DNA of 64,000 bases from assembly GCA_020137815.1 (NCBI GenBank), contig CM035351.1, forward strand, positions 8,122,001-8,186,000, written 5' to 3'. Positions 17,001 to 26,000 of this stretch are shown one piece after another (position 1 is the stretch's first letter; each line of letters opens with the position of its first letter). The notes under the pieces were generated by a model. It worked only from the letters and a program-made list of their open reading frames with translations, did no database searches and was not told the origin of the DNA. This DNA comes from Hormiphora californensis (taxonomy: Eukaryota; Animalia; Ctenophora). A program made the translations under genes and the position numbers.

Positions 17001-20000
17001 TGAACACAATACTTAACATGGGGCCCCGGGATTCTGAACTTCTTCAGCGGGAGTCCGCCGCGCACAACTAGTGTTGAAAAGTTTGCTTTCGATGTATCAG
17101 AAACTGCGCGCCTACCACGAATTAACAAAACCCACGCTCCCATGGGTCGACCCTCGGTCTCTTTCCAAGGAGACGGTCACTTCGTTTTTTATCTCTTTTA
17201 AAATTATAAAACAACCTCACGTGGTGTTTGCATGCAAAATTTCCTGCTCGCAGCTCTTGTAATACCCACAATCTCTCTCTTGCTTGTTCTCATTCCCTCT
17301 CTTTTGTCTCCTCTCTCTTCCTTTACTCGTTTTCCAATTTCCTATCTTCGTGGCATGCTAACGAGGGCGTACCTGACATTGCGTTCAGTTTCTCATTCAC
17401 TTTTCGTTGGCATGCAGCGGTCCCAGGAGAGAAATTAATTGCAACTTTGAATCTAGTGGAGGAAAGGAAATTAGCACATACCTTAGCTTAACCAATTATA
17501 TTTTGTTTTGGTCAGCAGGAGAAATTATTAGTTACTAGCAGGGGAGTATAATTGATAAATAATTAGATAATTAGTTACCTGTTAGGGTCTGTTTCAGAGA
17601 CTTGAGTGTCCTCATACATCATGAGTACAATTTGAGTATGGTACTGGGCCTCTCTCACACTACCTAGATAGTCAACTGCCTGTTTCCAAGTTGGGTCATC
17701 CGTCTAGGGAGGGCGGGAGTTTAACTTCTAATACCATGTTTTGAAAAGAGAGAGAGAGAGAGAGAGAGAGAGAGAGAGAGAGAGAGAGAGAGAGAGAGAG
17801 AGAGAGAGAGAGAGAGAGAGAGAGACTAGAGAGAGAGAGAGAGAGAGAGAGAGAGAAAGAGAGAGAGAGAGAGAGAGAGAGAGAGAAGAGGAGGTCAATC
17901 AGTTGTGTTGTTATTTGCGGTTAATATTGCGAGCTCCGTAATTAGTCTCGAATTTCACGACATAGACGACCGCGACCAACAAACCCCAGCCAGCCCTACC
18001 TACCACCACAGACCAGCAACAAAGGACCAGCCACCTACATCCCCTACCTACATTCTCAAATCAGATAAGATCGTTCATTCTATATTCATTGGTTACTATT
18101 TATTATTGTTGTTATCCGGTTGTGTCCAGCAGGAAGGGTGGGCAGTATTTAGGGCACGGCGTCCTTTTTTTTTTTCGTTGTCCCTGGCCTCTGTCTCCCT
18201 CCCTGGGTTGGCTCCAGCTTAGCTGCCCCCTCCTCTTTGTTGTGTTTGTTCATATTCTTTACTGTGCTGGTAAGCGCAATGTTGCCCTGTCAGCCTTTCC
18301 GTCTTTGGTATCTCGTTCTGGGCTGTTTGGTAGGTGGTCCGCAATTCTCTTGGGCCGTGGTTGGGGTTCCAGTTCCTGTGTTATATCACACTCACTTTGT
18401 AGTCCTTAGAATTTAGATCTCACCCACTCACCAGGTCTTCTTTTGGAATTTCCTGTTTTATATTTATTCCTTTCTCATCAAGAGTTGAGTTCTTTCCCTT
18501 ATAACATGGGTGCTTGTGGTGGGGATACGGTGTCGGTGGGGACCGGTAGGGCGTACCGTATATATATATGTATATGTATATGTATATATGTATATGTATG
18601 TATCTGTATGTGTGTATTCGTGTGTGTGTGTGTGTGTGTGTGTGTGTGTGTCTCGGTGTCCGTTGTGATCGGCTGCCGTGTTGTTCGGGCGCCGTCTTCC
18701 CACTACAAGCAGCAATGTAATAATATTTTTCTCAGCTTCTGTTTTCCAGTAACATAGGTATTCATCTAACCCTTTCGCTTTTCTCTGTACACCGTACAAG
18801 CGTACGCTCTAGACCTCCGAGTATAGTGGCATCCTCATTTGTCTGTTAGTTGTTAGATAATAGCTGAGTTAGGAGAGTAGTAGAGTCCCGAGTAGAACTT
18901 CTCTTTCAGGTCCCAGGCGTACAAGTAGCACCGCCCTTTTGACTGACCCTGGCTGATAGCCTCACAAAGGACCATCTCCATACTGACTTGCTACACTCGC
19001 AAAGGAAAAACGTTACCTATCCAGACCGAATACTGATTCAATCAGTTGATCCTGTCAATGGCCCCTGCATTCCCTCAGGACTAGTTCCTTCCCCTGGTGT
19101 TCATCTTTCTAGGGCATCTAGTGATCACCGCATCGAGTTTACCATCGTACCCGTCCCCTTCTCACCCACTTCACCCTACCCCTCCTTCAGTTGCTCCCAC
19201 TATTCCATGGTACCTTTCTTACCCTCCAGTTTTCAGGTCCAACTCTCCATCCCATCATTTAATTTCCCTCCTTCTCAGGTATCATTCAATCCATGGCAGA
19301 ATTCCTCTCCCCCAGCGTGTAACCTTCTGCTCTCCCCACTACGGTTTAGGCTGATTATGTGACATCTGTCCCAATCATGATAATTCGTTTACTGAGTACG
19401 TCCATCTCTGATGACAATTAGCTGGAGATTGCCGTTGTAACTTTTACCGGGGCCCGCTGTATACCCTCTCCCTATCCTTTTCTTGTAGTATAGCCCCTAA
19501 CTCCCTTTTCCGCCTATTTCTATTATGGTGATGGAATTTTCCAATCACAATTATTAAATTTTCAACTCTACTTTCCTTGACAGGGCGACCCGTCTCGCAT
19601 GTCACTTTTCGGTAATGGTCCTAACGACCATTTCCGCACCCCCCCCCCCCCCCAGGTTTTTACCCCGAAAGTGACTTCCGGATTGGAGCAATTATCAAGT
19701 AAATCTCCCTTATCCGGCAATCCAATCTAAACTTCCATGCACTCTGCCCAATCAGCTAATTAGAACTTTCTACTTTGGGCGGAAGTGCGGGCCAGATCCG
19801 GGTTCTGCACAACTTTCCGACTACCCTCGGCTCACTCCAGTCTGTTGAGATCCCTCGTGCTGAAGGAGTTTGCTGCCTCTTCTCTCAGCCTCCCCCGCTT
19901 ACCTCCGCTTATAGGTCTCCTTGGCACATTGGTCACAATACCCTTCATCAGTACCAGCTCTGTTTCATTTAACCAGTCACACCTAGTTCACTCTGCCGTT

Positions 20001-23000: not shown

Positions 23001-26000
23001 ACCTAGTTCATTCTGCAGTTATCCTGCCTATCATTGTACCAGTCACACCTAGTTCATTTTGCAGTTACCTTCATCTCTCTTTCCTGTGCCATTCCCCCTC
23101 TTCCCAGTTTTGGTTCCTTCCCGGTCTGTATCGTCCTGTTATTGCTTGCTTGCCATCTCGGCACCCTCCTGTCTCTCCTCACTGTTCCCTCCTTTAGCGA
23201 ACTCTGATACCACACCGGATTACAGCAAAGACAAGACCCTCCTTGAAGCTCGGTGGAGGAGCACCACTTCAACTCCCCTGGTATGTGTACCCCGCACCCT
23301 CTCCAGCATCCCTTCCACGTCATTACAGATCTTCTATTCGATCACTCTTACATCATTTTGTAGTTTCCCTGCATATCATTGTACCACCCACACTAAGTTC
23401 ATTCTGCAGTTACCCTGCCCATCATTGTACCAGTCACACCTAGTTCATTCTGCAGTTACGCTGCCTATCATTGTACCAGTCACACCTAGTTCATTCGGCA
23501 GTTACTCTGCCTATCATTGTACCAGTCACACCTAGTTCATTTTGCAGTTATCCTGCCTATCATTGTACCACCCACACTAAGTTCATTCAGCAGTTATCCT
23601 GCCTATCATTGTACCAGTCACACCTAGTTCACTCTGCAGCTATCCTGCCTACCATTACACCAGTATCACCTAGTTCACTCTGCAGTTAAACTGCCTATCA
23701 TTGTACCACCCACACCTAGTTCATTTTGCAGTTATCCTGCCTATCATTGTACCACCCACACCTAGTTCATTTTGCAGTTACCCTGCCTATCATTGCACAA
23801 GTCTCACCTAGTTCATTCTGCAGTTATCCTGCCTATCATTGCACCAGTCACATCTAGTTCATTCTGCAGTTATCCTGCCTAACATTGCACCAGTCACACC
23901 TAGTTCACTCTGCAGTTAACCTGCCCATCATTGCACCAGTCACACCTAGTTCATTCTGCAGTTATCCTGCCTATCATTGTACAGTCACACCTAGTTCATT
24001 TTGCAGTTACCTTCATCTCTCTTTCCTGTGCCATTCCCCCTCTTCCCAGTTTTGGTTCCTTCCCGGTTTGTATCGTCCTGTTATTGCTTGCCCGCCATCT
24101 CGGCACCCTCCTGTCTCTCCTCACTGTTCCCTCCTTTAGCGAACTCTGATACCACACCGGATTACAGCAAAGACAAGACCCTCCTTGAAGCTCGGTGGAG
24201 GAGCACCACTTCAACTCACCTGGTATGTGTACCCCGCACCCTCTCCAGCATCCCTTCCACGTCATTACAGATCTTCTATTCGATCACTCTTACATCATTC
24301 TGAAGTTTCCCTGCCTATCATTGTACCACCCACACTAAGTTCATTCTGCAGTTACCCTGCCTATCACTGCACCAGTCTCACCTAGTTCATTTTGCAGTTA
24401 CCCTGCCTATCATTGTACCACCCACACTAAGTTCATTCTGCAGTTATCCTGCCTATCATTGTACCAGTCACACCTAGTTCATTCTGCAGTTATCCTGCCT
24501 ATCATTGCACCAGTCTCACCTAATTCATTCTGCAGTTACCCTGCCTTTCATTGTACCACCCACACTAAGTTCATTCTGCAGTTATCCTGCCTATCATTGT
24601 ACCAGTCACACCTAGTTCACTCTGCAGCTATCCTGCCTATCATTACACCAGTATCACCTAGATCACTCTGCAGTTAAACTGCCTATCATTGTACCACCCA
24701 CACCTAGTTCATTTGCAGTTACCCTGCCTATCATTGTACCACCCACACCTAGTTCATTTTGCAGTTACCCTGCCTATCATTGTACCACCCACACCTAGTT
24801 CATTTTGCAGTTACCCTGCCTATCATTGTACCACCCACACCTAGTTCATTCTGCAGTTACCCTGCCTATCATTGCACCAGTCTCACCTACTTCATTTTGC
24901 AGTCATTCTGCCTATCATTGAACCAGTCACACCTAGATCATCCTGCAGTTATCCTGCCTATCATTGTACCACCCACACCTAGTTCAATCTACAGTTACCC
25001 TGCCTATTATTGCACCAGTCTCACCTAGTTCACTCTGCAGTTACCCTGCCTATCATTGTACCAGTCACACCTAGTTCATTCTGCAGTTATCCTGCCTATC
25101 ATTGATCCAGTCACACCTAGATCATCCTGCAGTTACCCTGCCTATCATTGCACCAGTCCCACCTAGTTCATTCTGCAGCTACCCTGCTTATCATTGTACC
25201 AGTCACACCTAGTTCATTCTGAAGTTACCCTGCCTATCATTGCACCAGTCTCACCTAGTTCATTCTGCAATTACCCTACCTATCATTGTATCAGTCACAC
25301 CTAGTTCACTCTGCAGTTACCCTGCCTATCATTGCACCAGTCACACCTAGTTCACTCTGCAGTTACCCTGCCTATCATTGTACCAGTCACACCTAGTTCA
25401 TTCTGCAGTTATCCTGCCTATCATTGATCCAGTCACACCTAGATCATCCTGCAGTTACCCTGCCTATCATTGCACCAGTCCCACCTAGTTCATTCTGCAG
25501 CTACCCTGCTTATCATTGTACCAGTCACACCTAGTTCATTCTGAAGTTACCCTGCCTATCATTGCACCAGTCTCACCTAGTTCATTCTGCAATTACCCTA
25601 CCTATCATTGTATCAGTCACACCTAGTTCACTCTGCAGTTACCCTGCCTTTAACTGTACCAGCCTCACCTAGTTCACTCTGCAATTACCCTGACTATCAT
25701 TGTCCCAGTCACAGCTAGTTCACTCCGCAGTCTTACCTCTGTCGAGTCTACCTACCTTTCACATCCTTCTACTCCAGGCACCTCAAAGAGCCCCGAATGT
25801 CATGGAGATACTCCAACACAACCTCCGCAAGACAGAAGGACCAGCTTATGAAATCCAGCTATCCCTTATCGACCACCCAGAAACCTTTGCTATGATCACA
25901 GAGCCCCCCAGGAGAAAAGCGATATTCGGAAACCTCTCAGTCTTTCCCCCTTACCCGGCATCAGACCCTCCTCGTGCCTGCATTGTCACTCATCCATCCC

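Follow-up and report, generated by a model that had tools for sequence, protein, structure and literature searches.

The subject of this analysis is a 13-kb long interspersed nuclear element (LINE) in the genome of Hormiphora californensis, a ctenophore, and in particular the route by which its open reading frame (ORF) could be translated from behind a leader of 7.9 kb. The element lies on the plus strand at ~17891-30953 of a 64,000-nt stretch of contig CM035351.1 (here called the window, the whole of the DNA that was analysed). It is intact, ends in a poly-A tail and sits inside an (AG)n microsatellite, with (AG)72 on the 5' flank (17747..17890), the likely target site, and (AG)16 on the 3' flank (30953..30985). 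From its 5' end it comprises a candidate first exon of 379 nt (17891..18269, +), a pyrimidine-rich unique leader that is a candidate intron or outron (18270..19655, +), a tandem array of ~124 copies of a 46-bp unit (19965..25731, +), an intact ORF of 1211 aa counted from the ATG at 25802 (25802..29437, +), and a 3' untranslated region (UTR; 29438..30953, +) made up of a (TCTCCC)n array (29690-30519), a segment shared with a second copy of the element (30521-30932) and the poly-A (30933-30953). The second copy, which is internally deleted, occupies positions 1..3050 on the same strand and consists of leader, 14 array units and the 3' end with its poly-A, behind which lies (AG)28.

By every domain test the element is an APE-type LINE. 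The ORF begins with an APE endonuclease (PF14529, E 1.5e-16) in which the catalytic motifs QHN, TEP, GDFN, TIDL and SDH are intact, continues with a reverse transcriptase (RT) of the non-LTR type, that of elements lacking long terminal repeats (LTRs) (PF00078, E 1.7e-25), and, downstream of this, an RNase H (PF00075, E 1.4e-14), and closes with a C-terminal Cys/His motif, for which the zinc-binding match was weak. When the ORF was compared with solved structures, R2 and L1 ORF2p were the best matches. The 5' and 3' ends of the element share no similarity, so that there are no LTRs, and both copies carry poly-A. With (AG)n on both flanks a target-site duplication could not be delimited, and all three visible ends of the two copies adjoin (AG)n; (AG)n targeting is possible, although two copies are too few to prove such specificity.

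The nearest protein was a model from Pleurobrachia bachei, 93% identical, likewise of 1211 aa and with the same start Met, and five more P. bachei proteins showed 34-48% identity to the LINE ORF. In a tree of 53 RT domains, selected from 169 proteins, the LINE and the six P. bachei proteins formed a clade (support 0.986) inside an RNase H-bearing group (0.902), separate from R1-named hits and from fungal hits. The protein matches point to a pleurobrachiid comb jelly as the likely host. The element resembles the I group (I/R1/LOA/Tad1) but apparently without ORF1: no CCHC knuckle was detected in any sense frame and the longest Met-started leader ORF was 96 aa, a scan that does not exclude a spliced or knuckle-less ORF1 in the leader. 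The narrower label LOA-like is our tentative, motif-based assumption, and the tree neighbours carry no clade names. Scans of metagenome and viral contigs found no locus matching the ORF, the array unit or the 3' end, and all six Rfam matches to the LINE were below gathering score. Folding stability was ordinary for the 3' end (z -0.58) and marginal for the candidate first exon (z -1.95). No description of the family, or of an intron-retaining APE-type LINE, was found in the literature titles and abstracts searched, although the supplements of the P. bachei genome paper, or Repbase, may already cover the family.

Upstream of 25802 the leader contains 29 ATGs, for which reason the ORF would hardly be reachable by scanning. 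Most of these lie in the pyrimidine-rich unique leader. By contrast with the unique, intron-like leader, which has 14 ATGs in 1544 nt, the 379-nt segment at the start of the element has none at all, a state that was equalled in 6 of 1000 shuffles, and it closes at the donor at 18270, the best in the leader. The lack of ATGs suggests that this first segment stays in the message. Close to its beginning is TCAGTT (17899-17904), which we take to be initiator-like.

Splice sites were scored with two rough models, one using generic frequencies and the other 10 host acceptors inferred from the window, and were ranked within the leader's pool of ~421 AGs and 547 GTs. A strong 3' splice site (25748..25777, +) stands 24 nt ahead of the ORF's ATG. 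Its acceptor, at 25777, ranked third among the leader AGs and was strong under both models; under the host-trained model it was at the 99.9th percentile (the top 0.1% of AGs in the window), and its strength was beyond chance (17/2000 local shuffles). It is in register (+47 nt) with the CAGs of the array and, as a preliminary description of this DNA had reported, in phase 0 with the ORF. The donors at 18270 and at 22290/23281/24223 (the latter belonging to the cassettes described below) were the top-ranked of the leader GTs by the generic matrix, with the cassette donors at rank 2; the donor at 19699 was moderate (rank 9 of 547) and not beyond chance. Strong acceptors in the unique leader were found at 19190, 19236, 19278, 19488, 19583 and 19655, and four acceptors there reached at least 9.6 bits, against a shuffle mean of 0.4-0.5 (0/300 shuffles). 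The standing of the acceptor at 19655 is model-dependent, being rank 1 under generic frequencies and 56 of 421 under the host-trained model, where its score of 4.9 is near the median of the array-unit CAGs (4.35, n=95).

The preliminary description had placed a 43-nt exon behind this last acceptor, and its components (CTAAC at 19621, then CAG|19656-19698|GTAAAT) are all as given there. The candidate exon (19656..19698, +) contains no ATG and is missing from the second copy; a longer form (19584..19698, +) contains an ATG at 19599 and crosses a run of 15 C (19639-19653). A further donor (G|GTAAGC, 18270) and acceptor (CTCTTTCAG, 18909) had been put forward as conserved in both copies. Both are present, and the donor is strong, but the acceptor at 18909 is weak (rank 221/421 under the host-trained model, not beyond chance), and conservation is uninformative here because the shared part of the leader is 95-97% identical between the copies anyway, with 51% of all 9-nt windows fully identical. 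At strict thresholds, all five plus-strand exon calls in the window fell in the LINE, two of them being the 3'-UTR segment in each copy, and five further calls were on the minus strand. The 3' UTR of both copies carries a strong acceptor-donor pair (30631-30830 and 2736-2931, +) with no evident use; a 4-nt indel between the copies argues against its being coding.

The unit of the 46-bp array has no ATG and carries a moderate acceptor-like CAG. The region of acceptor 25777 is weakly similar to this unit (P 0.026), and the shared register would be expected if an acceptor had been amplified into the array, but fits a chance origin as well. Tests of whether the array derives from the 5' leader gave P 0.3 and 0.06, and this origin was rejected. 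Within the array are three 301-nt cassettes (the first at 22075-22375), each with an 83-nt candidate exon bounded by TTTAG| and |GTATGT, at 22207..22289, 23198..23280 and 24140..24222 (+); coordinates, splice dinucleotides and phases are exactly as had been described. The cassettes differ from one another at 3, 3 and 6 of 301 nt and are recent tandem duplicates, the third exon carrying one substitution, and the spacers between the exons are 908 and 859 nt. Such an acceptor-donor pair arose in 1 of 300 cassette shuffles (the pair having been chosen post hoc), and the 83 nt have an ORF-like base composition between pyrimidine-rich flanks. The 43-nt exon and any number of 83-nt exons together add no ATG to a message, although for the 83-nt exon this is likely by chance (51% of shuffles). 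Homology of the cassette to the exon-like segment of the 3' UTR was rejected (z 1.4), and no host source gene for the cassette was present in the window.

These pieces had originally been read as coding exons that splice in frame into the ORF, with the three cassettes as mutually exclusive alternatives. The peptide given for the 83-nt exon holds for copies 1 and 2 but not for the third, which through one changed base ends H-L and not P-L. The three pieces do join without a stop codon; this is weak evidence for coding, because any join gives some frame, so that the absence of stops is the sole test, and two of the three frames are open in each exon. Mutual exclusivity fails its defining test, since near-identical cassettes about 0.9 kb apart, with the same peptide but for one base, provide neither an alternative peptide nor steric exclusion.

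The ATG at 25802 is at the first strand of the endonuclease, the usual start of that domain. Of 269 homologs aligned, 210 had a conserved Asn, which was no more than 15 residues from the start in 157 and at residue 57 or beyond in 9. The full-length P. bachei paralog models P0001 and P0122 start at a Met beside this Asn. With the ORF's own ATG at the canonical endonuclease start, and two P. bachei models beginning there, a coding role for the leader exons is weakly supported at best. It had also been remarked that no upstream ATG exon was identified to open such a chain; the 43-nt exon has no ATG, but the ATG at 19599 exists behind the acceptor at 19583.

The arrangement of acceptor and start codon can be compared with that of host genes. 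In each of the seven single-exon host ORFs that were checked, a YAG precedes the ATG by 0-13 nt; five of these YAGs scored 5.1-9.7 and two weakly (1.4 and 2.0), and the LINE acceptor equals the best of them. ATGs with such an acceptor number 6 of 2145 in the window, two of the six being the LINE's own, and 5 of 204 among pyrimidine-matched ATGs. At 24 nt, the pattern in the LINE matches that of the host genes, and it does not separate cis- from trans-splicing. Two of these seven host ORFs (56428-57801 and 57982-58542, +) are 181 nt apart and operon-like, the second with an acceptor directly ahead of its ATG; we take the first to encode a TFIIH p52-like and the second a MAD2L2/REV7-like protein.

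Spliced-leader trans-splicing is a route that the preliminary description did not contain. A spliced leader is reported on 56% of Hormiphora Iso-Seq reads, and trans-splicing is described in the same source as common in this animal family (PMC8527503), while a cis donor is said to out-compete a spliced leader for a downstream acceptor (PMC4558846). At 19559..19574 (+) the sequence agrees with the Hormiphora spliced-leader core at 15 of 16 positions and forms the tract of the acceptor at 19583; in the second copy, at 1655-1670, all 16 positions agree. The core is rare within the leader (2/500 and 0/500 shuffles, the two copies not being independent), but window-wide the signal is weak (6 tiles versus 0-5 in eight block-shuffles), and it carries no weight in the explanation preferred below. 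The 5' end of the LINE is not leader-capped, as the best spliced-leader alignment there scores 14, versus 30-36 at the internal cores. Elsewhere in the window, two more spliced-leader-like sequences were seen, both of weak window-wide significance: a 17-nt exact match at 17065-17085 (-), upstream of a gene with several exons on the minus strand, and, at 6660-6697 (+), a degenerate match to nearly the whole leader that has the leader's terminal motif at its end.

The second copy retains 1.7 kb of leader but has neither the 43-nt exon nor any cassette or ORF. The idea that it might be a spliced product was discarded, as it is joined at short microhomologies and not at GT-AG. Between the copies, the leader is 95-97% identical over 17997-19190, versus 84% over 19191-19643. 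Being without an ORF and yet poly-A-tailed, the second copy would have needed protein supplied in trans, unless its deletion postdates insertion. It also shows an internal duplication of ~120 bp (1538-1745, corresponding to 19428-19640) in which an acceptor, an ATG and CTAAC occur twice. In the full copy this duplication has partly decayed, and a 1-nt indel behind the ATG sets the two units apart. Its 3' UTR contains an insertion of ~185 bp (2480-2662) with inverted repeats near the ends and a duplicated flank, which by eye resembles a miniature inverted-repeat transposable element.

Any proposal of splicing in a LINE has to deal with the question of the template: because RNA is what a LINE copies, new copies made from a spliced message would have no introns. 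For human L1, spliced copies are reported to lose promoter activity and to be dead ends (PMC5860796), and for Penelope and Chlamys-3 the retained 5'-UTR intron is reported to overlap the promoter (PMC8557442). The same promoter-overlap logic could hold for the leader of this LINE, in view of the better conservation of 17997-19190 between the copies.

The best explanation, to which we would give about an even chance, is that the leader of this ORF1-less LINE is spliced off to the acceptor at 25777, that translation starts at the ATG at 25802, and that unspliced RNA is the template. What is established, and what it starts from, is the anatomy of the element, an ORF that is intact, 29 ATGs in the leader, how strong the acceptor is and where it lies, and a poly-A-tailed second copy with an intron-like leader. 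Transcription would begin at an internal promoter at ~17901. The main route would be cis-splicing from the donor at 18270, through the 43-nt exon and one to three of the 83-nt ATG-free exons, to 25778; this was chosen as the main route because the ATG-free first segment seems to stay in the message and a cis donor is said to out-compete a spliced leader. Trans-splicing of the spliced leader to the acceptor at 25777 is a likely second route. The exons would be 5'-UTR exons, their frame would be irrelevant, and triplication by array expansion would be harmless. Full-length unspliced RNA would serve as template for new copies, with the protein acting on it in trans via the conserved 3' end. Of the original proposal, the division of labour between spliced RNA for protein and unspliced RNA for template survives as the most likely scheme, with leader splice signals that are beyond chance, and we infer it without the coding exons.

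Several points weigh against this explanation. LINEs normally lose introns, so retention needs an extra assumption. Splicing was read from the DNA sequence alone, and with rough models, one using generic frequencies and the other ten host training sites that were themselves inferred. In a single RNA run no contig covered 17900-19960; as that run had no positive control for transcripts of this organism, the blank carries no weight. The sense strand is pyrimidine-rich across the leader, and the shuffles do not preserve patchy composition of this kind. Some 95 CAGs of the array, having scored as moderate acceptors, would be competitors of 25777, and there is an out-of-frame ATG 5 nt upstream of the ATG at 25802. 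Finally, the starts of the homologs are the output of an ORF caller, to which spliced extensions are invisible.

The signals could also be by-products of a pyrimidine-rich, repeat-expanded leader in which there is no functional splicing, the ORF being reached by internal initiation or from a promoter near the end of the array. The pyrimidine skew of the strand speaks for this, as do the register and weak similarity of acceptor 25777 to the array unit, the similarly strong pair in the 3' UTR (30631-30830), which has no evident use and a frameshifting indel between the copies, and the finding that the sole other copy is not a spliced product. However, three separately unlikely features (the host-typical distance from acceptor to ATG, a 379-nt start that lacks ATGs and closes at the best donor, and the paired sites of the cassette) would then have to be coincidence, and we consider this rather unlikely. 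A separate reading concerns the cassettes: the 83-nt exon and its intron flanks might be a captured piece of host pre-mRNA, amplified with the array as inert cargo, so that only the acceptor at 25777 may be used. The sharp exon-like step in composition, inside 301 nt that bear no relation to other parts of the LINE, is consistent with capture, as is the absence of the cassette from the second copy. Set against this are the lack of a source gene in the window and the lack of an ATG in the exon, as in a working UTR exon (though likely by chance), and capture appears very unlikely.

A coding chain, in modified form, is a further rival. It would enter at the acceptor at 19583, start at the ATG at 19599, and run from 19698 through one 83-nt exon to 25778, adding 69 residues before the endonuclease; the ancestor would have had one cassette, and the triplication would be a later accident and not a mutually exclusive cluster. 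Three of its supporting observations count at the same time against the leader being purely untranslated: the ATG at 19599 is 15 nt behind a good acceptor, in a host-like arrangement; its reading is open and stays in frame when exactly one cassette is included, and the second copy has this ATG too; and the codon score of the 83 nt is highest in the frame originally proposed (0.09, the others 0.01 and -0.26), where windows of the ORF scored 0.20 +/- 0.10 when read in frame and, off frame, about -0.29 +/- 0.27. The ORF-like base composition of the 83-nt exon, and the spliced-leader-like core adjoining the acceptor at 19583, also agree with such a chain. On the other hand, the second frame of the 83-nt exon (0.01) is nearly as good, the reading crosses the 15-C run, and zero, two or three cassettes break the frame. 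None of the 269 homologs matched the exon peptides (the lowest E was 1.8), the extension is rich in Pro, Ser and Thr, which make up 27 of its 69 residues, and an ATG in a good position is already available in the ORF itself. As there are 10 ATGs in 18910-19698, that one should be open and in frame is unremarkable. Translation through the exons is, in our judgement, quite unlikely.

If the preferred explanation, a spliced-off leader with an unspliced template, is extended to the group, ctenophore LINEs of the APE-RT-RNase H type may have swapped ORF1 for a must-splice, multi-exon 5' region with kilobase-scale introns that nevertheless survives retrotransposition. The protein would act in trans via the RNA 3' end, the ~120 weak array acceptors would tune the ratio of messenger to template, and Penelope-style retention would have evolved independently. 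We hold this wider proposal to be possible but doubtful.

Apart from the LINE, the window contains several features of other kinds. A 656-codon ORF on the minus strand (42302-44272) has a likely signal peptide and Cys-rich repeats, and its domain is presumably sphingomyelinase-D-like. Three tandem single-exon paralogs, the third apparently interrupted, are present at 48889-55886 (+), and we take these to be BTB-like. At 12507-13942 is a large palindromic element that contains 164-bp repeats and whose inverted arms are long, and a 41-bp tandem array (14517-15685, 28.5 copies, 97% matches) lies within an intron-like region of the adjacent minus-strand gene.

LINE proteins usually prefer their own mRNA. 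A LINE that needs splicing for its ORF would, if true, separate messenger from template and give up this usual preference. Retained introns are regarded, in the account cited here, as a peculiarity of Penelope-like elements (PMC8557442). If the splice signals are unused, there remains an unusual ORF1-less, 13-kb ctenophore LINE family, possibly (AG)n-targeting.

Among known systems, the I factor, R1, LOA and Tad1 elements resemble this LINE in that a single ORF holds APE, RT and RNase H together with a Cys/His motif at the C terminus, and in the poly-A end (as in the published I-factor layout, PMC2881922). Unlike them, it has a 7.9-kb leader with a 46-bp array in place of ORF1, and the ATG of its ORF is behind an acceptor; in two-ORF LINEs, translation of ORF2 is reported to depend on that of ORF1 (PMC2881922). 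For other non-LTR elements, among them those of the R1 and Tx1 clades, microsatellite targets are reported as established (PMC4640811), and the ends of this LINE likewise abut (AG)n, but its RT did not group with R1-named hits. In flatworms, RNAs of LINE and LTR loci have been proposed to receive a spliced leader, and 597 loci with partial leaders are reported (PMC12582326). The present LINE does not start with the leader, and has a long upstream region with an internal partial core only. Human L1 is, like this one, an APE-type LINE, for which functional splice sites in the 5' UTR, and SpIREs, are described (PMC5860796), those of the present element being predicted. There, splicing is reported to inhibit mobility, whereas here it would be needed for protein. 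The closest functional precedent is that of Penelope and Chlamys-3, in which a 5'-UTR intron is reported to survive retrotransposition and to overlap an internal promoter (PMC8557442). A Penelope-like identity for the LINE was rejected, given that APE and RNase H take the place of the GIY-YIG endonuclease and the Penelope-type RT, which is of another class, and those elements also have pseudo-LTRs. Their single intron of 75-751 nt is, according to the same source, shown by RNA, whereas several introns of kilobase scale are predicted for the LINE of Hormiphora.

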